This document shows positions 1 through 63,354 of a stretch of DNA of 64,000 nt, in pieces; the first letter of the stretch is position 1; each line of letters opens with the position of its first letter. Source of the stretch: Felis catus (lineage: Eukaryota); assembly GCF_018350175.1 (NCBI RefSeq), contig NW_025408510.1, forward strand, positions 124,001 to 188,000. Reading direction: 5' to 3'. The notes beneath the pieces are model-generated. The model was not told the DNA's origin and made no database searches. It worked only from the letters and a program-made list of their open reading frames with translations. The position numbers and the translations under genes were made by a program.

Positions 1-1722
1 CGAATGTCCTCATTATCAGCTCTCAGATGGGCTCAGGAGGCAGATGTACATGCAGGAAAGAGCACATTCTTAAGGGGATCAGCTGAACTACACACGAGAG
101 GAGGCATATTCCGGGGCGGAAACAGAAGCTCGGATCTGGCCTCAGGGGGAAAGAAATGAATCCATTGACAAAACCGAAAGATAAAAAAAAATCCACTTTG
201 GGAAAGATTCAGTGGTGAGAAAGACTTTCACCTGTTTTTCGTGAAATTCACACATCTCCTGAACGTTTTGTAATGGAAACTTGTATTTACCTCCAGTAAT
301 TTCCGAACATAACCGCAAAGTTCACGGGTCTGTGTTTTATCGAACTCTCATCAATCGTATGGTTAAAAAACTTGTGTCTACCGCATATCCTGAATTAACC
401 CAAAACAGAAGCGGCGAGGACAGGCCGGCAGGATTCAGGGGCTCCTGCCGGGCGCAGGGCCGTGGGGTACGGAGTACACATGTGCCCTGCAGTCGGGGGG
501 CCCAGGGAGGAGGAAGAGCCCACAGGACACACCCGCAGGCTAGGCAATGGACAGTCCCTCCAGGCTCGGGCTTCCTCATCTCTAAGCCACACCTGCTGGC
601 ACCTCTTTCCTTGGGAGCAGGCAACAGAAAGCACGACCACCACACCTCACACGCAGCAACGGCCATCACTTGGAAAAGACCCTGGCCACCCCACAAGAAG
701 GGATCGGCACCCAAGTATTTTTCAAGCAAAGCAGCTTAAAAGTGTCCTTGGAATTGTCTCAGTTATAATAGAATCCTTATCTCAACACCTGTCCCTCCAA
801 ACTACCATACAGTCCTAAAGGCAATGAGGTGCTTCTCTAAGTAGGTGAGGTCGAATTCTCGGCCCAAGAGGCTAGCGTCTGGTTGTGCTCACGTGTGTGC
901 ACGTGTCATGGCAGGCTGGGGTCGGCCAACACGAGCCGTCACGCTGGCATCAGAAGCTTCACTCCGCGGAAACTCATGTTTTATTCTCTGACCCTGAGGG
1001 CCAAGCACACGAGTTTCTGGTGTAAGTTAAGGGTGAGTGTTTTGAGTTTTCTGGTGAAAACAAAACCTGATGGCCTTGGATGGACGTCCCAAGTTGGGGA
1101 GGCTGCTGCCTGCTCTGTCTCCTGGGTGTTTCATGTTGACGTCCGACCAGCTCCCGCAGGGAAAAATCTCAGGGGATTCAAGGGACACGGGCCTCCCTTT
1201 CGTCAAGGCTCGATGACGCTATTCCTCTTCTTAGGAACATCTACCCCGACCTGTGCCTTTACATCTCAAGTAGAAAGTAGGATGTGGGGACCAAGGTCAG
1301 GCCCGTGACCTGATTTCAGGACCTCAGTGTCATGTCCTAAGGAAGGAGACCCCTCCTCTAGGCTGCCCTACCCCAGGCCAGTACCTCCGCTTTGGCCAAG
1401 GGACACCCACGAGGTCCCGCGTCAACCGTGAGGAGCTGCTAATGAGCTGGTGGGCACGGTGGGCTGTGCGGGTGCCTCCACCCCTAGGCGGCACTGCCTA
1501 CGGGGCCCCAGCGTCCAGAGAACATTGTCCATATGCTAGGAGTGTTCACTAGCATCCAACTCGCACAAGAGTGCACTGTACCCCTGATGGGATCGAGAAG
1601 GGGCCTGGCGTCCACGTGGGGAGAAGTGGGAAACAAGGCACCGCTCCCTACCCCGACACCCCCAGCCTGCGCCTCATCCTCAACCACTGCCAGGTGCGCG
1701 GCTGCTCCGCCCGGACACGTAC

Positions 1723-1806
1723 CCGCTGCAGTTCTTGGTTCTTTTCCTCCAGCTGGGCCTCCATCTGGCGCAGCCTTTCCTCGATGTTGCCACGCCTCTG
1801 CTCGGC
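1723..1806 (-). CDS. PPFIA1: PPFIA1-like exon 10 equivalent ([28 protein letters not shown]), left copy only
   Basis: 84 nt, cacag acceptor, gtacgt donor; translated by hand. Confidence 0.92.
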
Positions 1807-4233: not shown

Positions 4234-4275
<42 letters not shown>

Positions 4276-7200: not shown

Positions 7201-7970
7201 TCAATTTTACATTGGAGACAAATCTTCCCCGAAATAAATTACATTATGCAATTTGTACTAGCCAATCGATACCCACAACATTTCCACCAACTACTGCTTT
7301 TTAACCATACAGACCTGTCTTCTTACAAGAATTGAAGAAGATGAAAAGGAAACTCCAGTCACACAAACACACAAAGTGTGCCTAGAACACACAGCATGTG
7401 CACAAACTGAGAACCGCCGTGGCTAGGCACACCGTTTCAGCCTCGGTTTTGTCCTTCTCCAATATGGAGTTGAGGACCTTGAGCACCTCCGCCTCACTGG
7501 ACACGCCGGCCGGAGTCTTCACCTGTCGCCCGATGATGGTTTTTTGAAGAGCTCTCTCGTGCCTGGAGACGAGGAACTCCAAATGTTCCAGCAGCAGCTG
7601 GCGGGAGAGGCAAAAGGAACACCGTGTTTCAAGAACACCTTCAATTCCGGGCCTCAAGTTCACCAAATGCAAAACCAAGTCTGAATCCCTTCAATTCAGT
7701 TCCCAGGTAGGGAGCCACCCCCTCGAATGTGTTAAAATAGCCTTACTCCTCCTCACGGATCAAAGAAGGTTTGAGAAAAATAGGTCCCAGCCAACTCCAT
7801 GGGGACATGTGGACAAGGGGAGTGAATGGTGTCCTGTGTTTAAAGACACTGGCAGTGCGCCTACTGACCCTGGTGTTGTTTCTCTCCGCCTTCAGGTTGG
7901 CGATCTCCTCCTCCCTCTGCATGAGCTGCTCCCTGCAGGTGTGGAGCTCTGCAGCGAGAGCTGCACACTC
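1723..7970 (-). CDS. PPFIA1: Liprin-alpha-1-like partial duplicate, left copy (7 coding exons, open spliced frame, continues off window start)
   Basis: Exons 7869-7970, 7433-7597, 6974-7045, 6706-6843, 5079-5225, 3364-3498, 1723-1806, all AG/GT flanked and phase 0, no stop in 281 codons. Peptides such as [33 protein letters not shown] and [23 protein letters not shown] are liprin-alpha-1 coiled-coil sequence. Too diverged to be the orthologue itself. Confidence 0.85.
2656..2885 (+). mobile_element. CanSINE (mirror 56848-57077 -)
   Basis: gggtggctcagtcggt head, CT-rich tract, A tail. Confidence 0.9.
2940..3053 (-). mobile_element. Short CanSINE (mirror ~56681-56793 +)
   Basis: ggggtgcctggctggctcagtc...ttgggtgtagagcttac + A tail. 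Confidence 0.85.
3364..3498 (-). CDS. PPFIA1: PPFIA1-like exon 9 equivalent ([21 protein letters not shown]...ATLCK)
   Basis: 135 nt, cctag acceptor, gtgggg donor. Confidence 0.92.
4071..4310 (+). mobile_element. CanSINE, felid SINEC_Fc type (mirror ~55425-55664 -)
   Basis: ggtggctcagtcggttaagcgtcc...ctgacagctcagagcctggagcctgc, (CT)n. Confidence 0.92.
5079..5225 (-). CDS. PPFIA1: PPFIA1-like exon 8 equivalent ([18 protein letters not shown]...DSLHRQ)
   Basis: 147 nt, tag acceptor, gt donor. Confidence 0.92.
5347..5440 (+). mobile_element. Internally deleted CanSINE fragment (mirror ~54297-54390 -)
   Basis: ggggcacctgggtggctcag head joined to caggctctgtgccgacagtgcggag. Confidence 0.75.
6706..6843 (-). 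CDS. PPFIA1: PPFIA1-like 3' part of exon 7 ([12 protein letters not shown]...LQRDVRE)
   Basis: 138 nt, putative new acceptor tttcaaag, strong gtgagt donor. Confidence 0.85.
6974..7045 (-). CDS. PPFIA1: PPFIA1-like exon 5 equivalent ([24 protein letters not shown])
   Basis: 72 nt, ttccag acceptor. Donor is a weak gttcaa, so the 3' boundary is less certain. Confidence 0.8.
7433..7597 (-). CDS. PPFIA1: PPFIA1-like exon 4 equivalent ([19 protein letters not shown]...KTEAET)
   Basis: 165 nt, cag acceptor, gtgtgc donor. Confidence 0.92.
7869..7970 (-). CDS. PPFIA1: PPFIA1-like exon 3 equivalent ([34 protein letters not shown])
   Basis: 102 nt, cag acceptor, gtcagt donor. Confidence 0.92.
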
Positions 7971-20260: not shown

Positions 20261-21559
20261 TTAAGTTTACAAAAAATGATGAAAACCTTCTCTCTAGTAT
20301 CTGGAAGGAGACAAGGACACCTACTCTCACCACTTCCATTCAACACAGTACTGGAGGCCCGAGCCAATCCAAGGCAAGAAACATACAAATGGTTACACTA
20401 TTGGAAAGAAAAAAAAGAAACTTACCAAAAGGCAACACAGAGAATGAAAGGCAGGCATACCCAAGAATGTGAAAACCTCTGCCATTCACAGATGTATTCC
20501 ACACACATAGAAAGAACTCATTCAAATCAACAAAAACCAAAACACACAACCTAATCACAAAGTGGCTTCCAAAAGGCAATTATTTCACAAAAGAAACATG
20601 TAAGTGGCCAAGACACACACAGGGGCGGGTCCCACGAATACACCATACCTCCCAGCACCTGAGCCCCAGCAACCAGCTAACACACAGGAGAAGAGGCAAT
20701 ACCAGGCTTCAGCCAGCCCTGAGCTCCCTCACGCTGTTGCTCGAGGGGAGCAGACACGTGCCACCACTCACGCCCTGCTCCTCCAAGGCAACCCAATACG
20801 ATGCATGTGGATCTGCAGGCAGCCTCTGCACAAACCGGAGCACCCACAGGAGAAAGAATAAACCATGCTGTCCTCACACACTGGGCTTTCGACACCAGGG
20901 GAGGACCAGCACAGCCACACAAGGAAAGCAGGTGCATTGCACACACACAGCGCTCACGGGTTGGCTCAACATGAAGCGAAGAACAAGCCAAAGCCATCGC
21001 TGGTGAAAGTCAAGACTGTGGTTACCTTTGGGGGACGTTCGGTGGGAGTCAGTAGGAGGTAGGAAGCACCGTAAGGTTCCATTTCTTCATCCAGGTGGTG
21101 GTTCCAAGAATGTGTTCACTGAGTGAAAGATATGGAAGATCAGCTGAAAGCAGTGGCCTAGGATGTTCCAAACGTCCACCGCGTGCCACACAAAAATGCA
21201 GCTCTGTGCGGGCTGCTAACCCCCAAGAGAAGCAAGGAAGCCCCACCCATCTGAGTGCGGAATCAGGAAAGAGCATCCAGACACCCCAGGAGCTACCGCC
21301 ACACCCTCCTCGCCTCCAGCTGTTCATCTGGGGGAGTCCACATCGCCTTCCTAAACATAATTGGCCACAAGACACTGAATGCAGAAGCAGCTGGAAGAAT
21401 AAAGATCTTGCACTAAGCCAATGCCAATGCCAATGCCACCCTTCTACACAGTGTTGTTCTGAAAATGTACATATTTTTTCCCTAAAGTATGAAAAATATG
21501 TACTAATTTCTTGTCTTTAAGTGAATTCATCACATCTGAGATGCTCGGATTTGGTTTGG

Positions 21560-22029: not shown

Positions 22030-22880
22030 GCCGCCTCGGGGGACAGAACGTGTGCAGCCTGTGCGGGGTCAGGGGACAGACAAGGCGGGAAGGTCTCCGA
22101 CAGCCTCTGCGAGGGCGGCCGGCACACTCCTCACACGACAGCCGCGGCTGAGGCGGGCACCCGGAGAACCTCCCAGAAGCCACTACCTGCAGTGAGAAGG
22201 GCCCTTACCGCCCCCCCAGCGGTTAAGCCAGCACTGCCACGGGAGGCGCCCCCACACACACCCCGCCGCCACAGAGCGGCCACCACGACTCACGGGAGCC
22301 TGCGGGCGTCCACACGGACAGCCCGGCCTTCCGCCCGAGGGTGGCCAAATGCTGTCCCCCAAGTGAGCAGAACCAGGGCGCCCCGAGCCTCACGGCGTCC
22401 CACGGCTGGCACTGGGGTCTCTGCAGGAGTCCGAGCGGCGCTGGGTCCACCAGAACTCACCTGCCTCGATCGGGACGGTCTTCGGAGAAACAGGGGCCCG
22501 GGGCGACCTCCTCGCAGGTGGAAGACTTCTAGCAAGGGAGAAACCGGATGCTCAGAAGAGCACCTCCCTCGCCCTCCACAGCGCATGCGGGCTCCTACCG
22601 CCTTCAAGAACCAGCCGGCCTCCCGCCCACCTCTGCGCCTGGTAAATGCGCTGTGGCGCCAGCACCAACGGAAACGACTGCGTCAGGGCGGAAAGACTAC
22701 CCGGTGGGACGCTGCACCGGCAGAGACTCCTCAACACGCACCCGCCCGGACGCACTGGGGTACAACGTCAGAGGCGAACCCGATTTCAGCTGCGGACCTT
22801 GGGCGATGGACACACATCAGCACAGGTTTGGGGCTGTGACAAAGGCCTCGCCCTGGCGGGGGGTTCGGATACCTGCTCAG
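22030..22880 (-). promoter_or_regulatory. CpG-rich putative promoter / first exon of left copy
   Basis: CpG-dense, GC boxes (cccgccc ~22622, ~22741), NRF1-like gcgcatgcgg at 22581, consensus donor CAG|GTGAGT at 22461/22460 pointing toward the liprin exons. Confidence 0.65.
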
Positions 22881-29740: not shown

Positions 29741-29755
29741 TGCCCCTCCCCCACT

Positions 29756-29806
<51 letters not shown>

Positions 29807-36345: not shown

Positions 36346-36829
36346 AGATGCTCAAAGTCACTCCTCATCAGGGGACTACAAAGCAAAACCACACTGAGAT
36401 GCCACCTCACACGGATCAGAGTGTGCCTGTGGGTGGGCAGTCAGCACTGCTGCTTTGCTGGGACACAGTGTGTCCTCCAAAAGCGACAAGGGGTGGGGGG
36501 TCTCGCGCTTTGGGAAACATGGACAATCAGGAGCAGCGAGACTGCAACGTAGCCCAGGGTGTCCCGAAGCTGGCCCAAAGGTGGCCCATCAACGTCATCG
36601 GGGCTCTTACAGGCTCCCGAGCCCCTGTCGTGGCCGAGGAGGGGGGTGGGGGAGGGGCGTGGAAAGAGCACAGACTTGGGTTATGATTGCAGGGAGGTCC
36701 GCCCATGCATATTTTTGGGGGTGGTTTTGGCTTCTTGGCTACTTTTCTAGAGCAGTTTTAGCAAATGTGACAGGAAGCTCCAGAGATTTCACACACATAC
36801 CTGCCCTTACTGAGGCACAGCCTCTCCCC

Positions 36830-37680
36830 TGAGCAGGTATCCGAACCCCCCGCCAGGGCGAGGCCTTTGTCACAGCCCCAAACCTGTGCTGATGTGTGTC
36901 CATCGCCCAAGGTCCGCAGCTGAAATCGGGTTCGCCTCTGACGTTGTACCCCAGTGCGTCCGGGCGGGTGCGTGTTGAGGAGTCTCTGCCGGTGCAGCGT
37001 CCCACCGGGTAGTCTTTCCGCCCTGACGCAGTCGTTTCCGTTGGTGCTGGCGCCACAGCGCATTTACCAGGCGCAGAGGTGGGCGGGAGGCCGGCTGGTT
37101 CTTGAAGGCGGTAGGAGCCCGCATGCGCTGTGGAGGGCGAGGGAGGTGCTCTTCTGAGCATCCGGTTTCTCCCTTGCTAGAAGTCTTCCACCTGCGAGGA
37201 GGTCGCCCCGGGCCCCTGTTTCTCCGAAGACCGTCCCGATCGAGGCAGGTGAGTTCTGGTGGACCCAGCGCCGCTCGGACTCCTGCAGAGATCCCAGTGC
37301 CAGCCGTGGGACGCCGTGAGGCTCGGGGCGCCCTGGTTCTGCTCACTTGGGGGACAGCATTTGGCCACCCTCGGGCGGAAGGCCGGCCTGTCCGTGTGGA
37401 CGCCCGCAGGCTCCCGTGAGTCGTGGTGGCCGCTCTGTGGCGGCGGGGTGTGTGTGGGGGCGCCTCCCGTGGCAGTGCTGGCTTAACCGCTGGGGGGGCG
37501 GTAAGGGCCCTTCTCACTGCAGGTAGTGGCTTCTGGGAGGTTCTCCGGGTGCCCGCCTCAGCCGCGGCTGTCGTGTGAGGAGTGTGCCGGCCGCCCTCGC
37601 AGAGGCTGTCGGAGACCTTCCCGCCTTGTCTGTCCCCTGACCCCGCACAGGCTGCACACGTTCTGTCCCCCGAGGCGGCT
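36830..37680 (+). promoter_or_regulatory. CpG-rich putative promoter / first exon of right copy
   Basis: gggcggg at 36962 and 37081, cgcatgcgc at 37120, donor CAG|GTGAGT at 37248/37249. Confidence 0.65.
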
Positions 37681-39109
37681 GCCACGAACAAAGGCCACCT
37701 TAGGCCCTTGCGTCCTGTGGGCCAGGCCCTAGAGAGTCTGGTGAGCTGGGGAAACCCTATAGAAATTGGGAAGTTGACGAGAAGAAGGGGAGAGTGCCCT
37801 TTGTTCCCTGGGTCAGTGTTTCTGAGACTCGGTGGTGTCGGGACACTTGGACATCAGGGGATTATTGAGGGCCCCAGAGAGGCTTCGTGTGTGGGGGTTG
37901 TGTCTCTCGATCTCTTCTGTGGTGAGGTTAAACCGAGAATTGAAGCGGGCGCCTGGGTGGCTCTCTGTGTTAAGGGTCCGACTCTGGCTCAGGTGGTGAT
38001 CTCACAGTTGATAGTTTAGAGCCCCATGTGGGGCTCTGTGCTGCCAGCTGCCAGCCTGGACTTGTCTCAGATTCTCTGTGTCCCTCTCTCTCTGCCCCTG
38101 CCCTCACGTGCCCTGTGTCTCTCTCTCTCAAAAACAAACATTAAGGAAACCAAACCAAATCCGAGCATCTCAGATGTGATGAATTCACTTAAAGACAAGA
38201 AATTAGTACATATTTTTCATACTTTAGGGAAAAAATATGTACATTTTCAGAACAACACTGTGTAGAAGGGTGGCATTGGCATTGGCATTGGCTTAGTGCA
38301 AGATCTTTATTCTTCCAGCTGCTTCTGCATTCAGTGTCTTGTGGCCAATTATGTTTAGGAAGGCGATGTGGACTCCCCCAGATGAACAGCTGGAGGCGAG
38401 GAGGGTGTGGCGGTAGCTCCTGGGGTGTCTGGATGCTCTTTCCTGATTCCGCACTCAGATGGGTGGGGCTTCCTTGCTTCTCTTGGGGGTTAGCAGCCCG
38501 CACAGAGCTGCATTTTTGTGTGGCACGCGGTGGACGTTTGGAACATCCTAGGCCACTGCTTTCAGCTGATCTTCCATATCTTTCACTCAGTGAACACATT
38601 CTTGGAACCACCACCTGGATGAAGAAATGGAACCTTACGGTGCTTCCTACCTCCTACTGACTCCCACCGAACGTCCCCCAAAGGTAACCACAGTCTTGAC
38701 TTTCACCAGCGATGGCTTTGGCTTGTTCTTCGCTTCATGTTGAGCCAACCCGTGAGCGCTGTGTGTGTGCAATGCACCTGCTTTCCTTGTGTGGCTGTGC
38801 TGGTCCTCCCCTGGTGTCGAAAGCCCAGTGTGTGAGGACAGCATGGTTTATTCTTTCTCCTGTGGGTGCTCCGGTTTGTGCAGAGGCTGCCTGCAGATCC
38901 ACATGCATCGTATTGGGTTGCCTTGGAGGAGCAGGGCGTGAGTGGTGGCACGTGTCTGCTCCCCTCGAGCAACAGCGTGAGGGAGCTCAGGGCTGGCTGA
39001 AGCCTGGTATTGCCTCTTCTCCTGTGTGTTAGCTGGTTGCTGGGGCTCAGGTGCTGGGAGGTATGGTGTATTCGTGGGACCCGCCCCTGTGTGTGTCTTG
39101 GCCACTTAC

Positions 39110-44547: not shown

Positions 44548-47529
44548 GTTGGACATTATGTAGAAGCATAGAGGCTCTTTGTGTGGTTGTATTTCTTCAG
44601 CATTTCATCCCACACACCTCGAGTGTGGAGGTTATTGGGCTCAGTCAGGCGTGAGTGACCTGAGACTGGGGCTCAGTCTTTGTAAGGTGCAGTGTGAGCT
44701 GGGCTCACGCTGTCCCCCACCCCCGTGTAGTCCTCCAGTGTCTCCATCTTGAGGCCGGGAGTATTTCCAAGGACCCCTTCTTGGGGCTATGTCCCAAAGC
44801 CCAGTTATTTTCTCCACAGCACAATGAGATGATGGAAGGGTCAGCTTCTCAGGTAGTGCTTGTCGAGTGCCGGGCTCATTTTCTGTGCCTCCCTGTGTTG
44901 TCCAGAGCTCGGTTAGCTGCGACTTTCTGCTTGCCTTTCTGTTAGGTTTCCTTTGCAGCTTGTTGGTATATTGCCTCCAGTCCCTGAGGAAATTCAGAAT
45001 TCTCACATGTCTTGAGGGAGAGAGAGGACTCTGAACATTAGAGTTGGCTCAGGGGCTTCCCTTTTGTTGGTGTCTCAGTCCTTCCAGTTGTGACTGCCCC
45101 AGTGTCTCCTTGATGCCTTCAAACACTGCTTAAAATTGAACTCATCTTTCCTAGTTCATGATGGGTTGACTAACAGACTACTCACACGTATAAGAGCAAG
45201 CCGGAAAAGAGTGAGAAGTCATAGTGAACATTTTGGTCATCAGCATTTGTTACAGGAGAAAACGAAACCCAGTAGTCCTTGCCTAGTACCCATCGTTCTT
45301 CTAAAATGACCATCCAGTTTGCCCACGCTCAGCCAGCGTCCATGGGGTGGTGATGGTGTCAGCGTCCCAGCCCCACCCCCCTACACCACCGCTCTCTTCC
45401 CCTGTCAGGTGCCTGCCCAGGGCGGGCTTTGTGGTGCCGGGCTGGCTGTGGCAGGGCAGGCAGAGGAAGTGGATGGCTTAACTGACACTTTGAGTGTTTG
45501 ATCAGTGTTCATTGTTTTCTAATTTTCGTAATGTTTATTTACTTTTTAGAGAGACAGAGAGTGTGGCCAGGAGAGGGGCAGATGGAGGGACCCAGAATCT
45601 GAAGCAGGCTGGGGACGGGATGCACTTCAAGCGTACAGTGCAAACCCCACAACAAGGGTTTCTGTATTGGTGCACCCGAACCATCTGCAGAGACACAAAC
45701 ACCCACCTTTGTGGCTCCCCTTTGTGACTCTGCACAATTGTGGTCGCCAGGCTCTGGCTGCTGTGTTCCTCGGAGATGGTGGTGGAGGCACATCTGAAAG
45801 AGTGTATCTGAAAGAGTGAAGGGGTTAAGAGGAAGTGTTGCTTCCTTGCGCACGGTGGTTCAGGAAAGGCCTTTTCCGGAGAGGTCGCTCGGGAGCTGAG
45901 GCTGACCGAGCACTCTCCCAGCAGTCCGACTCCAGGGCCAAAGGCCGGGGTCAAGGAAGAGCTTGGCTTTGTTGTAAGCGATGGAAGGGGAAGCGGAGCC
46001 AGGTGAGGCGCCAGGCAGCTGGTGTTGGGACAGAACCTACCCCGTAAGGAGTTGGGTTTTCAGATAAGGACCTGGGGTCGTTGTGTCCTCAGTGGGAAGG
46101 ACTGGCATGATGTTGTTGAATTTTTTGAAAGCTGGTGCTGGTTCTGTGTGGATAGTGGGTTGGGGGAGGAGACAAGAATGGATGCAGTGTGGACGTCATT
46201 GGGTGGAGTGGCTCCTTCTAATGCGGGGGTTGAGCTCTAAGATTCGTGCTTTAGGCAACAGGTACAAGCCCCTCACATCACCCATCACATAAAGCACAGG
46301 ACAGTGTGCGTCTTTATATCCTTTACAGAACTACGTAATGTTTAAAAGCAGCGTGTGTAATTGTACGTGTGTGGGTACAAGGCGTACACTAAAGTATTCA
46401 CCTGTTCTGGAGTGCGTGGCAGGCACTGTACTAGGTGCTGAACACTATGTGCTGCAGTTACCTCGCCCAGAGACGTATGTGGTTTTACGGAGAGCAATAG
46501 AAGGGCATGGGAGTGTGTGGTTCGGTGGAATAGGGGGTACGTGTGCACCGTGCGGCTGCAGGATGGCCGTTTTGTCCCATGGGTCGGCGTGGGTCAGCCT
46601 CGGGGAGGCGGTTTTCCTTGGGAGGTTCGGCTGCCCTGTGTTCTCCTTCATGCACCCCGCTCTGTCTCCCGGACGCCTTTCCAAGCACCTTGTAGTGAAG
46701 CTCCATCTGGGCGGACTGTGGGCTCTTTGAGTTCCACACGGGCCACCACCCTCCTCCCCACACCTGTGCCTCCTCCTGGGAACAGAGCAGCTTGCTACCT
46801 GGTCCAGTGGTCAGAAGCCAGGGAGATGGCTTTGCCTCTTTCCCGCTCTTCCCTCTCCTTGCTGGTCCGTGGGTCCTGTGGTGTGGAGCTTGCCTCTCTC
46901 AGAGGCCATCTGCGAGGTCCCTGGAGATCTATACCCTGTCTTCACTCGGGTGGACTCGGGGAGGGGCCAAGTACTGCAGTCTTCCCTGTTCCTGCCGCAA
47001 TTGCCTGCCAGCATCTTGGCTGGGGGGGGGGGGGCGGTGCCTCCTGCTGTGCAGAGATGCTGGCTTTCTGCCCCATCTGTGTACAATACGCCATGCTCTC
47101 TGAGAAGACGGCCTTTCTTCCTGAACCTGTGTCCTGCCTGCTGGCCCTTAGTGCTTGGTATTGCTGAGCAACTTGGTAACTACGTGGTTTGGGGAAACAT
47201 GTTTGCCCTGTGTACAAGGACCCTCCAAACTGCTCCTGTTCTGCTCCTGGGTGGCTCAGTCGGTTAAGTGACCGACTTCACCTCGGGTCATGATCTTTGT
47301 GTTGGAGAGGTAACCCCCGATTCGGGCTCTGTGCTGACAGCCCAGAGCCTGGAGTCTAGTTTGAATTCCTTGTCTCCCTCTCTCGCTGCTCCTCCCCTGC
47401 TGCTTTCTGTCTCTGCCTCTAAGAAATAAAGAATGACATTAAAAAACTAAAACGTTAAATCTATTTCTATTTGACTCTTCTGTTGTTGACAATGGTCGTG
47501 CTTGCTTCCTTCTTCCCCAAGGATGAGTA

Positions 47530-51741: not shown

Positions 51742-51843
51742 GAGTGTGCAGCTCTCGCTGCAGAGCTCCACACCTGCAGGGAGCAGCTCAGGCAGAGGGA
51801 GGAGGAGATCGCCAACCTGAAGGCGGAGAGAAACAACACCAGG
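51742..51843 (+). pseudogene. PPFIA1: PPFIA1-like exon 3 equivalent, right copy
   Basis: Mirror of 7869-7970; AGG (R) where the left copy has ATG (M). Confidence 0.9.
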
Positions 51844-52114: not shown

Positions 52115-52279
52115 CTGCTGCTGGAACATTTGGAGTTCCTCGTCTCCAGGCACGAGAGAGCTCTTCAAAAAACCATCATCGGGCGACAGGTGAAGACTCC
52201 GGCCGGCGTGTCCAGTGAGGCGGAGGTGCTCAAGGTCCTCAACTCCATATTGGAGAAGGACAAAACCGAGGCTGAAACG
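52115..52279 (+). pseudogene. PPFIA1: PPFIA1-like exon 4 equivalent, right copy
   Basis: Mirror of 7433-7597. Confidence 0.9.
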
Positions 52280-52666
52280 GTGTGCCTAGCCACGGCGGTT
52301 CTCAGTTTGTGCACATGCTGTGTGTTCTAGGCACACTTTGTGTGTTTGTGTGACTGGAGTTTCCTTTTCATCTTCTTCAATTCTTGTAAGAAGACAGGTC
52401 TGTATGGTTAAAAAGCAGTAGTTGGTGGAAATGTTGTGGGTATCGATTGGCTAGTACAAATTGCATAATGTAATTTATTTCGGGGAAGATTTGTCTCCAA
52501 TGTAAAATTGAAAGCGGTTAACAAGCAAGTTTGTGAACCGGAGCATCCGTGAAAAACCTTACCAGCATTCTGTCATGTTATTTGCGGCGAAGGGGATCTT
52601 AGGGTCACTGTAGAGTAAGGACTAATGAAACACCTCTGTGTACAAACTCAATCCCTTGGTTTCCAG

Positions 52667-52738
52667 GTGAGAGAGCAGCTACGTGTGGCACTGGAGGGGT
52701 GTAGTTTCGTAGAAGAAGAATTAGGGGCCACACGCAGA
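52667..52738 (+). pseudogene. PPFIA1: PPFIA1-like exon 5 equivalent, right copy
   Basis: Mirror of 6974-7045. Confidence 0.8.
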
Positions 52739-52868
52739 GTTCAAGCTCCAGACATCATCCCAGGATTTGATTGGAGGGGGTTTCCTTTTTATCCATTGTT
52801 TTTAAAACAACATATGAAGACTAGCAGTGGGGGCCCTCACATGTTGCTTCCCTTTCTGAGTTTCAAAG

Positions 52869-53006
52869 GTGCAGAGCCAGATGAAAGAGCTCCTGGCTAC
52901 CCTGTGCACTCTCATGGCCAAGCTGGAAGAGGACCTAGACATCTCAAGGAAAGACCTCATCCTTTCTGAAGCAATGAACACCATATTACAAAGAGATGTC
53001 CGTGAA
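52869..53006 (+). pseudogene. PPFIA1: PPFIA1-like truncated exon 7, right copy
   Basis: Mirror of 6706-6843. Confidence 0.85.
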
Positions 53007-54511
53007 GTGAGTGTCATTTGAGATGGCCACGCCGTCGTCGAGCTAAACGTGGGGTGTTTGGTTCGGCCTTGCCCAGTGTGCCTTCGTCTCCCACGGGTTT
53101 TGAACGTTTGGAGTTTGGTAGAAGTAGCAGCAGAACGGGACGTGATTCTGGGGCCCGGGCGGGCTGCCTCCCCGTCTGCATGGTGGAATCTGTCCTCCCT
53201 GGGCTCTCCCCTGCCGAGGCCTGGCGGGCAGGCGGCGGAGTGGCCTCGGGTGTGGAGTGTGGGCCACCTGAGCTTGGCCCATGCCGTGCTCTCGGTCCGT
53301 TTTGGGAACACACTCGGCACGTAGGAACCAGCGTGGTGCTGCCAGGTCGTTTCCGGGGGCACGACCTTGTGAGGGCGGCTCTGCCAGGGGCCGTCACGGC
53401 CGCCTCTGCTGCCCTGCCCTCCTCCCAGGGTTCCGTGCTTCTGGTCGTGGCGGTCAGAGTGAGCGAGGGGCAGCCCGCCGGTCCTGGTGTAAGGTCATGG
53501 AGGAGTGCGGCCGCTTCTGCACGTGTGGTCGTCCATGGGAATCTGATCATTGTCACAGAAACTAGTAAGGGTAGGATGGTTTCTCTGTGCCTCCTCCTGT
53601 CACTGTGAGCTGCCCTTTGCGGACAGTCCCCGCACACCCCACCCCCAGCCCGGCAATGCCACCTCGGGAAGACCCTGTCAGACCCTCGAGGGTGTAAGTG
53701 CACGAGCAGTCTGTTTAGTACCTCAGTGTGGGTGAGATCGTGTCAGAATTTAAAACAAAAGTATTTGCAGAAATTCTATAACCTGTTGTTTGGCAAAGGT
53801 GGGGAGAGACCCCTCAGCAGAGTTCAATATGCAGAGAATTTAGAAAATCATTTCTTAGGACTCATCACTTTCACTCTTGAGACTGCTGACATACATTGCT
53901 TAGTAAACACGGAGGACTGGAAGAGGAATCTTTCCGGTGTTGGACAAGAAACGCAGGGCAGGACCTTCTGGTTCCATTTGCAGTGTCAGACACCATGGGA
54001 TACAATGTTGTTACAGGGTGAGGGTACAGAAGATGACTTCCAGTTATATGAAAGGTGGAGTTTGGCTTCCATTTGTTAACACTGCTGCTTCAACTTTGTG
54101 GTAATTGGATGAGATTTCATCCACCTTTTCCCCGGGAAAAAGGATGGTTGTCTCATGGTGTGTGCCTCCAGAGGCAAGTCGCCGTTCCGTGGAAAGCTCA
54201 ATGATGTCCAGAGGCAACCGAGGTTGTGACTTCCGGGAGACTTTATTATCCGTTTGTCTTTGAACACATGGGAAAGAATAAGCCTGGGTAACTGGTCAGA
54301 ATCCCGAGCAGCCTCCGCACTGTCGGCACAGAGCCTGACGCGGGGCGCCAACTCACAGAGCGGCACCGGCTGAGCCACCCAGGTGCCCCGAGGATGCTAC
54401 TTTTCTGTTTGTTTGGAAAATGAGGATTTCGCCCGGTTTTTGTGTCTGGAGTGTCTTAATGTGTCGTACGCTAACTCTTTCCCTGTTTTCCCTCTGAAAT
54501 ACCTGCTGTAG

Positions 54512-54658
54512 GCCATGGCCCAGAAGGAAGACATGCAAGACAGGATCACTACCCTTGAGAAGCGCTGCCTCAGGGCACAGCACAAAGCCACCTCTCTGCA
54601 CGACCTCAAGGATAAACTTGAAAACGAGATCGCAAAGAAGGACTCTCTGCATCGACAG
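54512..54658 (+). pseudogene. PPFIA1: PPFIA1-like exon 8 equivalent, right copy
   Basis: Mirror of 5079-5225. Confidence 0.9.
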
Positions 54659-55461
54659 GTCGTTGGTTTCGTTGAACTTCATTCCACTTTTATTAATTAC
54701 AAGTCAAGTTAAGGACCAAGTGTCAATGTCAAGGTTTTAGGATCTTAGAATCTTGTGTTGACCAGCGGGGTTACTTCATCGTCCAGGGTTTAATTCTTTC
54801 GAGTTTTATGGAAGCATGTTATGGGGCTCCCCTCCTTGATTCCTTCTTTGTCTTGTCTTACATGCACGTTACTCTGTTGCCTGTTAGCACTGTTTCCAAA
54901 GGAGCAGGGAGTGGCCGGGAATGTGTAGGCAGCTGGCCATTTTGGTTAGTACCTGAGATCGGGGGGAATGGCAGGTGCAGAAGCACAGTCTGGCGTGAGG
55001 CTGTGAGACCCTGTGTTTTGGGAAGCAGCACGTCTCTTCCTTGGTTGTCTCAGGTCATCCGGCATTGAACAGGAAAACCACATCCAGCTTCTTGGAAACA
55101 GAGTGAGCTTTTTCTGGGGTGTTTGTCAAATGTGTCAGTCGACCCAAAATGATAATCAAAGTGAAATACTAGGAAGCCATTAAAATGACATGGAGGAATG
55201 CTGTTTGAGAGCACGTAACATGTTCCAAGTCATGAATGTATAGGGCAGATCGTGAAATACTATGTGTATAGCATGTGATTTATTTTGGAGGGTTTAAAGC
55301 ATGATACGCGGTCTGTATATACACACAGAGCCATATGCACACAGAAGATGGAAGGAGTCTGTGGCAACACATGTTAACCTTGCAAAAACCTCACCTTTTA
55401 CATGATTTTTAAAATGACTTTATATAATTTTAACGCTTATTTAGTTTTGAGAAAGGGAGCC

Positions 55462-55504
<43 letters not shown>

Positions 55505-56236
55505 GAGCAGTGGAGGGCAAGAGAGGGAGACACAGAATCCAAAGCAGGCTCCAGGCTCTGAGCTGTCAGCAGAGAGCACGAGGCGGGGTTGACCCCGTGA
55601 GCTATGAGATCATGACCTGAGCCGAAGGTGGACGCTTAACCGACTGAGCCACCTCGGCTTCCCTAAAAGTCCTTTAACAAAAAATCTCGTGTCTAAGTTT
55701 TCCACGTTGAAGTTTTCCACGTTTTTGGTCAAAAGGGAGAGTGTTTTTGTTGAATAATGGTACACTTCCAAAAAGAACTCAACTGGCATCAGGCATGCTC
55801 TCAGAAGCTCTGTGCTGGCTGATGTGCCCACCTCAGAATGTCCTATGTAGCGAGCCCTCGGACCCCAGTATAAATATGTTTACGAAGGGTTAGGACCGAA
55901 CCCTTCTCTCCTTAACTGGTCAGGAAGAGCGAGCAAGCTCCTCCAGAAGATGGGTTTTCTTTACTGTGTGGGAACTTTGTCTTTGGAAAGACTTCTTTGA
56001 AGATACTGAAGAAGGGCAAAGAGTTTGGCAAGACATGTTTTGCGTAGTGAAAGGAGGACCAAGGCAGTGGGTGACTCCTTGCAGAAAGGAAAGGTTCACT
56101 CTGAAGCACCTACCAAACTGTTGGCTTCCGTCAGAACTAACAGTAGATCTCTGCATTTAGATTTTGTTTCACTTTATTAAAAATGGAAACGGAGAGAAGA
56201 CTTGCTACACTTTGATGCTTTGCCTTCATGTCCTAG

Positions 56237-56371
56237 ACTGCGGATCAAAACCGCCAGTTGCAAGAGCGCCTGGAGGTGGCGGAGCGGAAGCTGCAGCAGA
56301 CCCCGAGGAAGGCCAAGTCGCTGCCCGAGGTGGAAGCCGAGCCGGCCCAGAGGGTGGCCACCCTCTGCAAG
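56237..56371 (+). pseudogene. PPFIA1: PPFIA1-like exon 9 equivalent, right copy
   Basis: Mirror of 3364-3498. Confidence 0.9.
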
Positions 56372-57232
56372 GTGGGGCCCCCGTTTCCTTCTGGGTTCCC
56401 TGGTGGGAATGTCATTTTCAAGGCGGTCCGTTCTCGTATCTCATTTCTCACCGGTAACGTCGGCGTGCCAAAGTCCGCGAACCAGCTGAGATCTGTTTTC
56501 GGGGCTACTTTGTCTGAGATTGGAATGCTTTTCAAACGGCAGGCATCATCCCCAGTTTTGTTCCCTCCGGTTTTGTCCGACGTGTGCTGTTTGCTGTTAG
56601 CTGCATCTAAGACTCACTGCTTTTCAGAGTTAAGTCAGCGACTCAAAGCTCAAGATAGTAGCCTTGGGCAAGAGAAGGACAGGGGTGCCTGGCTGGCTCA
56701 GTCAGTGGAGCTTGGGACTCTTGATCTCAGGGTCATGAGTCTGAGCTCCCCGTTGGGTGTAGAGCTTACCGAAGGGAAAAAAAAACAAAAGAGCATAGAA
56801 TTTGTCCGAGAAATGAGAAAATCCTATCCTCTTTTAAACACAATCGTTTTTATTTAAAAAATTCTTAAATGTTCATTTATTTGACACAGACAGAGAGGGC
56901 GAGCCTGGGCACATACATGAGCAGGGGAGGGGCAGAAAGAAGGAGATAGAATGCCAAGTAGGCTCCATGCTATCGGCACAGAGCCTGACACAGGGCTCGA
57001 ACGCCCAAACCTTGAGTTCATGACCTGAGCTGAAGCCAAGAGTCAGAACCCGACTGACTGAGCCACCCTGACACCCCTGTAAGAAATAAATCTTTAAGGA
57101 ATTCACTCGGAGGTTCCACAAATAGAGTCGAGGAACATGCCAGACACAGTCCCTGCCCTCCCAGTTCTCACAGCCCTCACCACCCACGGAGGAAGGCAGC
57201 AGTTGAAGAGGTAGTTTCCAGACATGTTGTAG

Positions 57233-57352
57233 TCTAAACTAAACAAAGAGACTAACAAACGTTTGTCAGGCACTAATGACCAGCTCCTTTTTGAATCTGA
57301 TGACCGGTTTCAGAGTCGTCTTAAAGAGAGGATGGCTGCTGTGGAAGATAAG
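57233..57352 (+). pseudogene. PPFIA1: PPFIA1-like exon 11 equivalent, 5'-truncated (SKLNKETNKRLSGTNDQLLFESDDRFQSRLKERMAAVEDK)
   Basis: Hand translation matches liprin [33 protein letters not shown]; gtagga donor; begins at the deletion junction. Confidence 0.88.
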
Positions 57353-58650
57353 GTAGGACATGAGAGACAGCGGCTGAGTGCCCCCGTCCTCACAGAGGAG
57401 ACGCTCACGTTGTGATGCTGAGGAGCAGCGTGGAGCAGAGGCTAACAGCCACTGCAGAAAGTAGAAATGATTCTTTCACACGGAAAAACTGTAGGCTGTT
57501 ACCCACTGCCTACGTTAAGTTCCCAGTGTCGTGTCCCTGCCCGACGTCTGTGTGCGGGAAGGTGCGTCTCACTGTCTAGGAGAGGAGTATGGTCTGGGGA
57601 GGGCCCGAGAGTAAGTATTTTAGGCCTTTACTAACTGAGACGTAAGGAGTAAGCTAGCTTCATGCTAATCAAAGATGGGCACAGAAACAGCCATAGGCAG
57701 TATATAACTAAGGGGAGGGGCCGGGTGCCGATAACCCTTTGTTGATAGGACCCGGCGGGGGCTGGATGTGGTCGGCAGGCCCTCGTTTGCCACCCCTGTG
57801 CTGGAACCTTCAGCCTGGTTCTTGTCTGGGGAGCTAATTTCTACCTCTTTTGTCCAGACGGACCGGTAGGAGTGCGCAGTTCTGTCAAGCATTTAACCAG
57901 CTGAAAACAGAGTATCTCCTGTTCCATCTCCTGCCTTCCCTCTTTTCATCTGGGTTGGAAAGAGTCTAAGCCTGGACTCTTACAGCATCATAACGGATAC
58001 ACTTGAGGTGTAACGGGAGGGAAGCAGTATCATAGGATCTCTGTGAGAGAAGCTCTGGTGGTGACAGTTGGATGCGGACCTGATACTACCGGTTCTGGTG
58101 ACACCTGTGTCCCTGTAGATGAGCCCAGAATCTTCCCTAAGACTGGCACTTGGAGACACCAGTGAGCAATGCTAATTACACGACACACTTATTTTGGGTA
58201 AAACCCATTATGAGGTGCGTTATTATACCCCACGTGAGGTTCTACCTTGATCACTGGGGCCAGCCTTTCGGTAGAATAGTTGTATGTGAGATTGGAAGTA
58301 TATGTACGAAACGTAGGTCAGCTTTCCCAAGTGACTGAGGCATCACAGACCCTAAAAGCTAGTACAAACCAGTGTACCTGCTGCAAGTAAACTTAGGAAC
58401 TTGTCATACTTACAGTCAGACAGTGATCCGTGAAGAAATTGTACATGGACAAAGTATGAGTAAAGGCTGTTACTGCAGTTTCACAGACAGCATTTCACTC
58501 TGTGGTCATGTGACCCGGTTCGTTGGTATGGCCATCCGCTCCATGCCTTGTCTGTGGTGCTGCGTTATTGTAAAGAGAAACGTAGGCATGCTCTAGCATG
58601 TGGAACGTTTGAAAGAATCAACACTAAAGGACTGTCAGTACCTTTCTCAG

Positions 58651-58713
58651 AAGTCTCTGTTAGGAGAAGTTGGCAATCTGAAAAAACAGTTATAAGAAAC
58701 GCAACGTGAGAAG
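58651..58713 (+). pseudogene. PPFIA1: PPFIA1-like exon 12 equivalent with in-frame stop (KSLLGEVGNLKKQL*ETQREK)
   Basis: 63 nt, ctttctcag acceptor, gtattt donor, TAA at 58693-58695. Confidence 0.88.
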
Positions 58714-59029
58714 GTATTTCCATCTCTCAATCATTCAGTGATCGGTTGAGACTGGAAAGGAGCAGGTGGCCTCTGGGGCTCACACTTCCTCCATGGCGAG
58801 CCACCACTGTGCTTTCGAGCGGCCCCATGCTCGCTAGTCTGAATGGCACGCATGTGGCGGAGTTGGAGCCGAGCAGCCTATGGGGTTCAGATTTCTGAGT
58901 CCCTTCGGGGGTTCGCTCGAAAGCTAAAATGTTCGCGTAAACCTTTCATTGAGTGCAGCGTTGCCCAGCAGGAAGGTAACAGGTGACACGGGTGTCATCC
59001 CAAGGATTCTCGCGGCTGCATTTGAAATG

Positions 59030-59262
59030 GTCAAACAGACGGGTGATGTTAGTTTTCATGTAGCCCGATGCAGGCAACATGTTATTGTATCATGTAAATA
59101 GTGTAGACGTGAAGGAGCTACTCTACAATGTTTTTCCACATTTAGTCCTTGCAACCCACGGGGCGTCTCACAGTTCCATCCCCTGTGGTCGGGACCAGCC
59201 CCATTTTGGGCGCTCAGTTAGCCACGTGCGGCGGTGTCTCTGGCCTGGGACGGCACTGCCTA
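59030..59262. mobile_element. MER3-like hAT fossil
   Basis: gaccagccccatttt...ctcagttagccacgtgcggc...ggacggcactg end motif. Confidence 0.5.
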
Positions 59263-59639
59263 GGGGGTAGTTGTGTGACCGAAGCTCCTCATCGGTTTTG
59301 CTCCCTGGCACTGCGTGTGCAGACGTGAGGCTGGGCTGCACAGGGTCCACGACGGAGCACGTGCCTATTGCACAGAAGGGCTATTCCCCCACCGCCCAGA
59401 AAGTCCTGCTCCTCTCTACATAATTAGGAAGAAGTCCTAGTGGCTCGGTGTTTCTCCTCTGTAACCTTGCTATGCCTGAGACCTGACTGTTCAGTAGGGT
59501 TTAAGACGTTCACTTGGTGATCCGGGTGTTTACTGGAGGACTCTTGGAGAGAGTGGTCTTCGGGTTCGTAACTGCTAAATTTACCCAGCGTGGTTATGAT
59601 GGTCAGCATTTCAGCACACTTGATGCAAGTAGTGTTTTC

Positions 59640-59932
59640 CATTTTTTCTTGAATTCTAATGAACCTACAGTGTTGTATCAGTTTCAAGTAGACAGTGTAC
59701 CGTTTCAACAATTGCACACGTGACTCTGTGCTCGACACCATCACTGTGGTCACCGTGTGTCACCATACAGAGTCCTTAGGGTATCACGGACCGTATTCCC
59801 TGTACTGTGCTTTTCATCCCCGAGACGGCCTTATTTGATATCTGCATGCTGATGCCTCCTAATCACCATCATCTCTTTTGCCCACTGCCCCTACTCTCCT
59901 CTCCTCTGGCCACTACCAGTTTGTGCTCTGTG
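59640..59932 (-). mobile_element. Old L1 3' UTR fragment
   Basis: gtcaccataca...tattccctgtactgtgcttttcatcccc...cctctggccactaccagtttgtgctctg. Confidence 0.7.
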
Positions 59933-60006
59933 TTGAACGGACTCTTGATGCAAAGACTAGTTAACCTTGCTTGCACTGAGTGTCATTGTCATTTGCTGCT
60001 TTGCAG

Positions 60007-60086
60007 GATCACCTTCTCCGGAAGATGGAAGCACTGAGGGCCGTATTAAAGCGGGCAAGAGTGAGAGGCTCTTCGCGTCACCATGG
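60007..60086 (+). pseudogene. PPFIA1: PPFIA1-like exon 13 equivalent (DHLLRKMEALRAVLKRARVRGSSRHHG)
   Basis: 80 nt, ttgcag acceptor, gtatga donor, ends in phase 2. Confidence 0.88.
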
Positions 60087-63000
60087 GTATGACACTTCCC
60101 GGTTCACAGATCTGTTTGAGATGCGGCTGGGGGTGGCTTCCCTCTGTCACCAGTATGACCTGAACCAGCTCATGGTTCCAAAGTAGAACCGTGGGTGTGC
60201 TATGGTATGACCCGAACCGGATCAGAGTTACACACAATAACCCTGAGGGTGTTGTAGTCTGACGCGATCCATTTTCCAGGTACCAGCTAACTGAGGATGG
60301 GGCGGGGCTGGGGGGGACACTGCCCTTCACCGTGCCTAACATGAACCACCTCACAAACACCTATGTTAGCACCTGCTGTGTTTCTTCCAGAGGAATCCTT
60401 TGGCCGAATGGGCAGAGTGACTGGATGTAGCTCAGGGAGCCGGTAGCTTCGTAGTTGGCAAGAGGGAGAAGTAAAACCTCATTCCAGAGGTTAGGTTTGG
60501 AATCTCAGGAGACCGGGAGGCATGACAGAGCTCACAGCCATGGGAGGAGGAGTGGAAGTTAGGGAAAGTTCTGTTCGTGTTTGGGTGGGTTTATTTGCGG
60601 CCTCCCTCCACCGAGTGTGGCAGTGATGGTGTGGGGCTAGGAGGGGTCCAGCGTGCCAGGTTCGGCCCAGCATCCCTGGAAGCTATGGTCCCTTCCACAA
60701 CGCCAGTGGGGTCACCATGGGAGTGCACACGTGGCCATGGTTGTGAAGGTCACCTTGACATTGGTGGGGTTAGCGCAGTGCTCGCAGTTTCTTATATTTT
60801 TGAAAAGACCGGAGAATGACATGTAATCGCTGTAACTCTGTTGGGACGTTGGTGAGTCGCCTGTGAGGGAGTGGGTCAGCCGGCTTGTGAGCTGCGTCCT
60901 GCAGACAGTAATTGTCAGCGAGGTATTAAAAGGTTTGCTTGCTTCTTTGTAGGAAATGGGTACCATGTGAGAGTCATTCTGGTGTGACAGTGCCTCGAGT
61001 AGCTGACTGGGCCCCCTTGGGTGCAGGAAGCAGGCTCCTGCTCCAAAGGCAGGCCCCTTCAGGCCTCACTGGGGTGTGTGCGGCTGCCGACGGGGGCTCT
61101 CGGGAGAGTCGAGGGTGTGCTGTGGCTGTCCTTGTTGAGCCTGCTTGTAGGAGAGAGGAGAAGTCAGTACAGGTAGGGGCACAAGCGGCCCTCCGTGTCC
61201 ACGGAACTACTGGTGGCACAGCGAATGTGTGTCCGGAGAGAGAAGCACACAGGAAGATCCGGGCACAGAGCAGCCTCTTGGTTGGCTGACGGAGATCCTC
61301 GCCAGCAAGACACCAGTGTGCTGAGTGTCACCATTCCAGGGCTTGAAGACGGGCATGTGTGAGGAGGCCAAGGGAGCAAACAGTGGATGCGGTGCAGGCC
61401 CCTCGAGGGCATGTTGGAGTTCTCAAGGGAAGGGGCTGTGCAGGCCCCTGGAGGGTGGCACCCTGGGGCAGTTGCCATAAGAGGGACGTCCACGCCCATC
61501 ACCCGCCTGAGGTGAGCTGGCCAAGGAGAAGGATAGAGAGGATCGCAGTGCGCCTGTGGTTGCGGAGGCGTTGGCCGCGGTCACAGGTGGCCTTGTGGTC
61601 AGAAGACCCCGGGCAGGAGACCGGCTGAGGAACAGGGTCTGTTTGAAGCCGTCTCACAAAGTGCTCTCTCGTGTGGTGGCAGAAGAGAGGCTGGTGGGAG
61701 CTGTGTCGCCGTGAGCGGCCGGGGGCCGTGGGGATGAGTCTGAGAAGGCGGCAGGCAGGCTGCACAGCTGAGCCCTCCTGGCACGACCTCACAGCCACGT
61801 CTTCTGTTTGTGTCCTCCTCTAGCAAGATGACATGGTCTGGGTTGCAGAGGAAAAGAAAGGTGTCGGACCAACTTCCACACGCAGGCGGGGCAGATGGGA
61901 GAGAGCTCTGGGATAGGACTGGATGCAGGGTGTTGGGGTCGGGAGCCAGGGAGCCTGAGATAGGGTGTCAGAGTCAGGGGACACACGCGAACCTCCGTGG
62001 AGCCACGAACCATGCCAGGTCCCATGCGGGGTGGCGTGTGTGGCTCTCCCCGATTGGCGATGTGTCGTGGCCGCACAGCGGTGAAGCTAGACCACCTGAG
62101 CTCAGGTGAGCAGCTCTTCTGGGAATGGGGGGACCAGAGGAGGGGAAGATGGTTGTGGCCAGCGGGCAGTTCCAACTTGGCTGTCTTAGAAGCAATCAGT
62201 ACCCTGAGGCAGCACGTGTCAATGACGTTTCTTGAAAGGCCGCAGAGAAGAGCTTGAAGCACCACAGAGGAGACGCCCTGTGTGGTGGCTCTGTCTCCAG
62301 GCCACAAGGGGTGACGCCAGGGGCCCCCTCTTTAGTTGATGTGAATCAGATGGGTGTGTTCTGTCTCCCGAGACCATAAGGATTTGTGAAATGGAAGGCA
62401 GCCTCTGTTCTTTTCCAGAGAGCGAGGAGCCACTGGACTCCCGTGCAGGGTTCAAGTGTGGAGGGTGAACCCGTGGCTGAGGCCGGGCACATGGGCTGGC
62501 GGGTGCTCCTTCACAGCTGCTGCCCAGAGCTTCCTGCCCAGAGCCTTTGCTGAGGGGAGCAGCTGACAGCCCAATTACGTGACTCCACCCTAGGGGCTCC
62601 GGGGCTCCATGGAACTTTTCTGGAGACTTCTGTGGCCAAGGGGGACATTTGTGTGTTAGTCTAACTGCACAGAGGCCAGAGACGCTTTTGCCTCGGAAAC
62701 ACCGGGCGCATTGCCACCTCCTGTGTACGGGAGCTGCGAGGTGTGGTTCCCGAGGATCCTGCCGCGGATGCCCCTGGGGCGCCCGATAGTGGCTGGTGGA
62801 GGAAAACCTGGGGTCACCTGGCATCACAGCAAGGGCCTTGGCACACGTGGGCCGATGGCAGGTGAAGGCCAGAGGGACGTATAGGAGTGCTTTCCGGTCA
62901 GTTGGGCAGGAGGTGGTGCAGACACGCAGGACGACAGCTTGACTGGGGGCAGGCGCTGCTCCACCTCGGGGACGTCTGGGCCGCGGGGATGCGTTGCACC

Positions 63001-63212
63001 TGCTGGGCCCGGGAGACCCTGTGTCCACAGGGCCCGGCTAGCGGGCTTGCACTGCAGCCAGGGGCAAGGATGCCTTCCTTGGAGACCTTTTTCTGTGACC
63101 TCATTTTCCCAATTGACGGGTTCTGGCCTGGCTGACAAAGTCCACTTTTCTTTAGATAACAACCTTGGTGTGTGTGTGCGTGTTTGTTTGACCGTTTTCC
63201 TCCGTGTTTCAG

Positions 63213-63354
63213 GCGGACGCACGTCGGCAGCATCCCAGCTTCCAGGTTCCGTCTGGCGGACAGCCCCACGGATGCCAGCAGCACCAGCAGCAGCGCGGTG
63301 TTGCGGCGCCACCGGAAAGGCCGTGTGGCCCGTCTGCGACATGAGCCTTCCAAG
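63213..63354 (+). pseudogene. PPFIA1: PPFIA1-like exon 14 equivalent (RTHVGSIPASRFRLADSPTD...SAVLRRHRKGRVARLRHEPSK)
   Basis: 142 nt, tttcag acceptor, phase compatible with the previous exon, followed by gcaagg (GC-type or mutated donor). Confidence 0.88.

Follow-up and report, generated by a model that had tools for sequence, protein, structure and literature searches.

A copied internal cortactin exon as the likely, mostly untranslated first exon of liprin-like genes in the cat

The window analysed here, a stretch of 64,000 nucleotides (C25:124001-188000) from the genome of the domestic cat (Felis catus) whose numbering is used throughout, carries in the two arms of a palindrome (2499-28324 and 31390-57234; identity 99.2-99.8%) copies of a liprin-like gene that descends from PPFIA1 and has lost its beginning; the question raised by this locus is where the transcripts and proteins of such a start-less gene begin. 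A first-pass annotation of the same DNA had noted that neither arm holds an exon for the liprin N-terminus, and this is borne out: the PPFIA1 start exon (aa 1-88) finds no match in the window, in contig C25 or in the C22 block, and no second copy of the PPFIA1 exon 1-2 region exists in the assembly. As a replacement, it had put forward a first exon in a CpG-rich upstream region, with an ATG at 37123, possibly encoding an Arg-rich N-terminus and joined directly to exon 3. The liprin-like part of the two genes and the candidate reading frame are arranged as follows.

51742..51843, forward strand: first retained PPFIA1 coding exon (exon 3), PPFIA1 aa 89-122
52115..63354, forward strand: further liprin-like exons of the right arm, with one exon and the next acceptor (~57235) lost
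1711..7970, reverse strand: liprin-like exons of the left arm within the window; the gene runs past base 1 with its frame intact
37123..37248, forward strand: 42-codon open reading frame (ORF), an N-terminus only if spliced directly to exon 3, otherwise an upstream ORF
22461..22586, reverse strand: left-arm 42-codon ORF and CTTN-derived exon, mirror of the right arm

The 42 open codons from ATG 37123, which end in phase 0 at CAG|GTGAGT with 37248 as the last exon base, are present as originally described; the same is true of the mirror in the left arm (22586-22461) and of exon 3, which starts at 51742 and, in the left arm, at 7970. The centre of the palindrome (28843-31393) is composed of inner 0.9-kb arms of 95.6% identity around a spacer of ~750 bases, and the two chimeric genes face outward from it. 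A deletion of ~2.7 kb at 57234-57236, through which the right arm lost the exon encoding PPFIA1 aa 404-436 as well as the next exon's acceptor, marks the outer limit of the near-perfect arm alignment.

The donor locus of the upstream region, which the first-pass annotation had proposed to search for, is CTTN, the cortactin gene (C21:112,105,941-112,108,014). When positions 36900-37500 were compared with the assembly, 11 of 11 candidates matched; ten are copies at 94-100% identity on C22, C24, C25 and C26, a count that hinges on the assembly, C22 and the small scaffolds overlapping at up to 99%, and the eleventh, at 74%, is the single match on C21. This C21 match sits 80 kb downstream of PPFIA1 exon 3, directly after the last of six matches to the cortactin HS1 repeat (HS1_rep), and is followed by exons for the cortactin coiled coil and then SH3. 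Translated, the source exon (C21:112,106,625-694; 70 nt) has PDB entry 8p94_I as its sole match, at cortactin residues 320-342 (E 3.6e-4). The resulting features of the right arm are:

36438..38573, forward strand: CTTN piece, intron-exon-intron (2.1 kb), source C21:112,105,941-112,108,014, 76.6% identity over 2172 columns
37181..37248, forward strand: former CTTN coding exon, source exon encoding cortactin residues 320-342, with old acceptor and inherited donor
38573..38581, no strand assigned: duplication junction, CTTN intron (C21:112,108,014) joined to PPFIA1 intron 2 (C21:111,986,610)

Over the CTTN-derived exon region the left and right arms differ at 2 of 1801 bases. The exon measures 70 nt in CTTN, 69 nt in eight copies and 68 nt in the two arms of the window; its donor at 37248 is letter-for-letter that of the CTTN exon, and the strength of this site is thus explained by inheritance. 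The old CTTN acceptor (37179-37180) is intact in all ten copies, and the ATG at 37123 of the copies is ACG in CTTN. A SINE at 37950-38130, which we take to be of a feliform type, occupies the same site in the CTTN source (L011:2525-2730); if that type is correct, the duplication postdates the SINE insertion.

Taken together with the splicing data given below, we put at roughly 0.7 the probability that 37181-37248 is a copied internal CTTN exon placed upstream of a start-less PPFIA1 copy, and that its donor is spliced into a liprin-like message as the likely end of a new, mostly untranslated first exon. The earlier proposal of a chimeric gene thus holds, with a CTTN piece and a PPFIA1 piece as the partners spliced together; both parental genes have their exons present on C21. 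That the region is simply PPFIA1's own exon 1 can be rejected, since the PPFIA1 island (C21:111,983,000) and start exon (111,984,623-886) are unduplicated and the match lies 123 kb further on, inside CTTN. The Y-linked cat genes TETY1 and TETY2 were considered as well and set aside: the accessible part of PMC1420679 pairs TETY1 with canine chromosome 24 and TETY2 with X, and the word "liprin" has no occurrence in that part.

The junction allows the duplication to be reconstructed in some detail. Positions 38581-39438 align to C21:111,986,610-111,987,484, 1.7 kb past the PPFIA1 start exon, so that the junction unites the two ends of a 121-kb interval running from PPFIA1 intron 2 to a CTTN intron. 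In a comparison that took in C25 to base 226,000, 200 kb of C22 and ten 10-kb pieces of C24 and C26, all C21-matching DNA of the cluster falls within 111,986,609-112,108,014, save for matches read as interspersed repeats. The left unit presents, in one orientation, a CTTN 3' piece, PPFIA1 and a CTTN 5' part, which is a circular permutation of the donor interval, and the donor locus itself is single-copy on C21. The 121-kb interval was thus copied with its ends joined, which placed 2.1 kb of CTTN before PPFIA1 intron 2, and the unit was amplified to ~10 copies; the copy would have arisen via a circular DNA intermediate or by a tandem duplication moved later. According to the part of PMC7188851 accessible to us, duplication mediated by extrachromosomal circular DNA (eccDNA) gives a circularly permuted order at the recipient site, and the same permuted pattern can also be yielded by tandem duplication followed by transfer and deletion. 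As in the eccDNA cases described in that part, the order at the recipient is permuted, the donor ends are joined and the donor remains single copy; here, in contrast, later deletions, inversions and amplification mask the insertion point, and 5.6 kb are missing near the presumed opening point. These 5.6 kb (C21:112,100,297-112,105,940) were not found in the copies fetched, and a genome search for them, in which 40 of 5490 candidates were scored, returned nothing but repeats besides the source.

The recipient copies are placed on the large contig C22 and on unplaced scaffolds, partly as palindromes. They have diverged from the source by 14-20%, and the duplication would therefore predate the felid radiation. 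At C22:19,633,800-19,669,500 and C25:54,075-57,300, a unit of ~1.24 kb is arrayed ~25-30 times and flanks the cluster on C22. Duplicated CTTN 5' parts (source C21:112,087,400-112,100,300) also lie in the cluster, at C25:84000-101400 and 199800-207900 and at C22:19,679,500-19,680,500; they come without the presumed CTTN CpG island.

How could an internal coding exon become the 5' end of a gene? The region is CpG-rich as first described, with a GC content of 0.69 and a CpG observed/expected ratio of 0.77 at 37001-37500, and the motif scan locates GC boxes at 36962, 37018 and 37081 and GCATGCGC (NRF1-like) at 37121. The likely promoter is given as:

36900..37130, forward strand: likely new promoter zone in a former CTTN intron, putative; GC boxes, MYB-like site at 37038, ETS-like sites at 37015 and 37035, NRF1-like site

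The GC-box, NRF1-like, MYB-like and ETS-like sites are assigned by motif pattern. All ten copies have at least two GC boxes, an NRF1-like and a MYB-like site; common to the CTTN source are only one GC box and two TGACG sites, a difference whose direction is unpolarised. That the gene had borrowed an existing promoter, as had been suggested, does not fit a source made up of an internal CTTN coding exon and its introns. The promoter of CTTN itself can be rejected as the borrowed element, the presumed CTTN CpG island (C21:112,083,500-112,085,000; GC up to 0.83) falling in a gap of the duplicated DNA. Point changes would rather have turned a CpG-rich CTTN intron into a promoter, with transcripts reading through the old acceptor. 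CpG retention was considered as a sign of an unmethylated germline promoter and is not significant: 19 CpGs are kept and 12 decayed of 36 in the promoter zone, versus 378 and 471 of 1067 in the body (p = 0.069), and 5 of 64 body windows exceed the zone in retention. The CpG evidence for a de novo promoter is thus suggestive at best.

Splicing was followed in four contig runs labelled "RNA?", out of 24 runs listed, by aligning them to 36700-38800; such contigs cannot show start site, strand or tissue, and the aligned span excludes 51742. They point to exons that lie between the CTTN-derived exon and exon 3, of which 38591-38683 is absent from the first-pass annotation.

38591..38683, forward strand: new exon 2 (93 nt), from PPFIA1 intron 2; ATG 38627, strong in context, opens 19 codons that are in frame with exon 3
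21026..21118, reverse strand: new exon 2 of the left arm
37523..37740, forward strand: minor cassette exon from a former CTTN intron; joint 37248>37523 in two of four runs, ~37740>38591 in one of four

A GT..AG joint from 37248 to 38591 is found in three of the four runs, at depths of 136, 61.3 and 6.4 (intron depth ~4-25), and in two of the four the first letters of exon 3 stand directly behind 38683/4; the two joints occur in separate contigs and hold at the level of the family. The fourth run, X9, has a flat depth and no joint and is DNA-like. Since the first 250 nt of the intron are present in all 11 genomic matches, the joint is not explained by an assembled processed copy. The donor is thus spliced into liprin-like transcripts, as had been proposed; the partner seen is exon 2, which weakens the predicted junction 37248>51742, the latter position being outside the aligned span. 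The new exon is also used by gene models such as P0008, P0220 and others, and the cassette by the fishing-cat model P0235. The source in PPFIA1 intron 2 shows the ATG context, but AG and GT are both absent at the places of the exon-2 splice sites, which would therefore have been gained in the copies.

The contigs also bear on whether the CTTN-derived exon is still an internal one, spliced from a first exon further upstream. The conserved acceptor would be expected of such an exon, and model P0028, from Geoffroy's cat, has coding sequence from 36519 on; however, in run X10 high-depth contigs (total depth 175) extend across 37166, which lies on the upstream side of the old acceptor, and the listing for 36700-38800 contains neither a joint nor a loose end that leads into 37181. 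This suggests a first exon that reads through the old acceptor, a read-through which, like the motif differences, speaks for a newly formed promoter, and makes an internal position very improbable. These high-depth exon-1 contigs of X10 carry the alleles of the eight other copies, and a contig identical to the arms, spanning 36867-37248 with the ATG at 37123, occurs in run X2 only; expression of the two arms therefore rests on this one low-depth run (6.4). Exon-2 depth exceeds that of the exon-1 joint in X10, X13 and X2, an excess that may come from other starts, and felid models show additional 5' exons. In run X2 the depth climbs from ~38475, and a short exon begins at 38459 in the fishing-cat model P0262; a further start may lie at 38459-38590, just before exon 2.

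What, then, of the 42-codon reading frame? One reading makes the first exon coding in the two arms: splicing would mostly bypass exon 2, and translation from ATG 37123 would give a 42-aa Arg-rich N-terminus, a very young and copy-specific innovation. Such an isoform is not new: five RefSeq predictions with the left-arm exon 3 carry exactly these 42 residues (XP_044907481, 483, 484, 485 and 486; P0123, P0239, P0240, P0241, P0245), so that five of the six isoforms listed for the left-arm locus predict the direct splice and one, isoform X2 (XP_044907482), uses exon 2; the same direct splice is found in P0028, and the arm-identical contig of run X2 covers the ATG. The right-arm model XP_044907489 starts at 52881. 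Against this stands first the frame itself, as the distance from ATG 37123 to the donor is 126 nt (phase 0) in two of ten copies, the arms of this palindrome, and 127 nt (phase 1) in the eight others, the phase-0 frame of the arms being made by a private 1-nt deletion. An in-frame ATG at this place exceeds chance expectation by little: when the bases of 37000-37248 were shuffled 2000 times, 273 of the shuffles (~14%) contained an ATG followed by 30 or more open codons and in phase 0 at the donor. The start context is weak, with C at both -3 and +4 where ATG 38627 has G at both, and a Pfam search with the 42-aa peptide gave no match. In X10 the joints to 38591 and 37523 (136 + 9) roughly equal the exon-1 depth above background, and no loose end with exon-3 letters at 37248, the one form in which the direct splice could show in this span, is present among the 24 loose-end rows listed; as 110 more rows lie beyond the listing, this is not counted as disproof of the direct splice. 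In the same arms, moreover, exon 2 has come to begin with TGA, where the eight other copies have CGA. A coding first exon is thus unlikely, and the main splice and start first proposed are most likely wrong; the Arg-rich N-terminus is weakened as well, being in frame in two of ten copies only. The accompanying caveat that the exon may be non-coding becomes the likelier case for this very reason.

With a mostly untranslated first exon as the preferred reading, the protein would mostly start at ATG 38627, and ATG 37123 would open an upstream ORF: when exon 2 is included, translation from it ends after 42 codons (arms) or 52 (others), before ATG 38627, in all ten copies. Skipping of exon 2 would yield the 42-aa Arg-rich start in the two palindrome arms only, and the RefSeq N-terminus for the left-arm locus rests on a frame present in two of ten copies. 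In a non-random set of 70 felid models, many of them isoforms of a single gene, the 42 residues open 5 models, the exon-2 ATG opens 9, and 17 begin at a third place:

45841..46002, forward strand: third candidate start exon, start of many felid models; its ATG is missing in both arms

This exon and its mirror have 54 open codons and a good donor; the 17 models that start there include Panthera, and the ATG is present in four other copies.

Downstream of these alternative starts, the left copy comprises 11 exons with 478 aligned codons and no stop. Compared with PPFIA1 on C21, dN is 0.18 and dS 0.39, a ratio of 0.47 (bootstrap 0.35-0.65); because PPFIA1 itself is conserved, most of the dN probably falls on the duplicate branch, whose evolution would be fast. 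A liprin of ~500 aa is predicted as the product, with CC2 and a portion of CC1: the CC2 domain (Pfam PF25526) is recognised at E 1e-78 in P0240 and 5e-79 in P0008, and no SAM domain has a Pfam match in P0240, P0008 or P0126. The copies thus resemble the liprin-alpha family in their descent from PPFIA1 and in keeping CC2, and differ from it in lacking aa 1-88, several middle exons and the SAM123 module. In liprin-alpha, as described in the accessible part of PMC8044993, CC2 interacts with RIM and ELKS, the coiled coils self-assemble, and LAR-type phosphatases, CASK and liprin-beta are recognised by SAM123. A truncated liprin would likely take part in coiled-coil assemblies, together with full-length liprins or with partners of CC2, and would not bind LAR-type phosphatases; going by domain content, it may act as a coiled-coil-only modulator.

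The alternative is that the family consists of transcribed but decaying duplicates, in which the splicing is real and no useful protein is made. A dN of 0.18, if it fell mostly on the duplicate branch, would be near the neutral expectation; the right arm has lost an exon; and predicted N-termini differ widely across copies and species. The open frame argues otherwise, as none of 300 neutral simulations was stop-free in either of two settings and 5.6-5.8 stops are expected, although this test is partly circular, the exons having been taken from an ORF-based model. So does the spread of the gene models, which come close to full length in Felis and Prionailurus and are shorter in Leopardus, Acinonyx and Panthera. 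Mere decay is improbable. The close relatives among the matches listed, two of the searches covering 8000 candidates at most, are from Felis, Prionailurus, Leopardus, Lynx, Herpailurus, Acinonyx and Panthera only. The horse, too, has truncated liprin-alpha-1-like models of its own, in which an exon is tandemly repeated (P0002-P0006), and papers on pig, cattle and sheep also list "liprin-alpha-1-like" loci; partial duplication of PPFIA1 may be recurrent in mammals.

The best reading of the locus, from sequence comparison, is that of a chimeric gene resembling Drosophila Sdic, with a mostly untranslated, CTTN-derived first exon. As far as the accessible part of PMC3395120 describes it, Sdic is a chimera of AnnX and Cdic, less than 5.4 My old and testis-specific, with a tested promoter, and lies in tandem between its parents. 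The two are alike in several respects: two adjacent genes were duplicated and fused with both parents left intact; the 5' region combines an exon of one parental gene with an intron of its neighbour; the coding part was contributed by a single parent and lacks a portion of the protein; a new 5' exon supplies a new N-terminus, a predicted one in the cat; and the genes form a multicopy cluster. Unlike Sdic, the copies described here lie on C22, C24, C25 and C26 and not in tandem between their parents, and the family would be older than the felid radiation, against the <5.4 My given for Sdic in that same part. Felid RefSeq and UniRef "liprin-alpha-1-like" models (e.g. XP_044907481-486, XP_044907489, XP_045313253, XP_053744662) cover the same loci and exons; unlike the account given here, they are automatic and named by similarity, and their names omit the CTTN origin, the junction and the start used. 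A literature search, over listings and abstract openings from mostly open-access journals, showed nothing relevant on this family. The gene models are thus already public, and the CTTN origin is apparently undescribed.

As a wider and tentative scenario, a duplication of PPFIA1-CTTN through circular DNA may have founded a felid-specific family of fast-evolving, germline-expressed, coiled-coil-only liprins, in which a promoter arose de novo around a dead cortactin exon and a first coding exon by two point changes past the breakpoint; the copies would still be testing different N-termini, and the latest of these would be the 42-aa Arg-rich one, which a 1-nt deletion created in a single palindrome. 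The mechanism is of a known kind, and the novelty lies in this family and its origin. If true, the family would be a mammalian counterpart of Sdic whose sequence records each stage in the birth of a gene, from the junction and the conversion of an exon into a 5' end to the pair of splice sites that made a new first coding exon and the amplification. As the copies differ in their start options, the birth of a promoter and the turnover of N-termini would be testable copy by copy.
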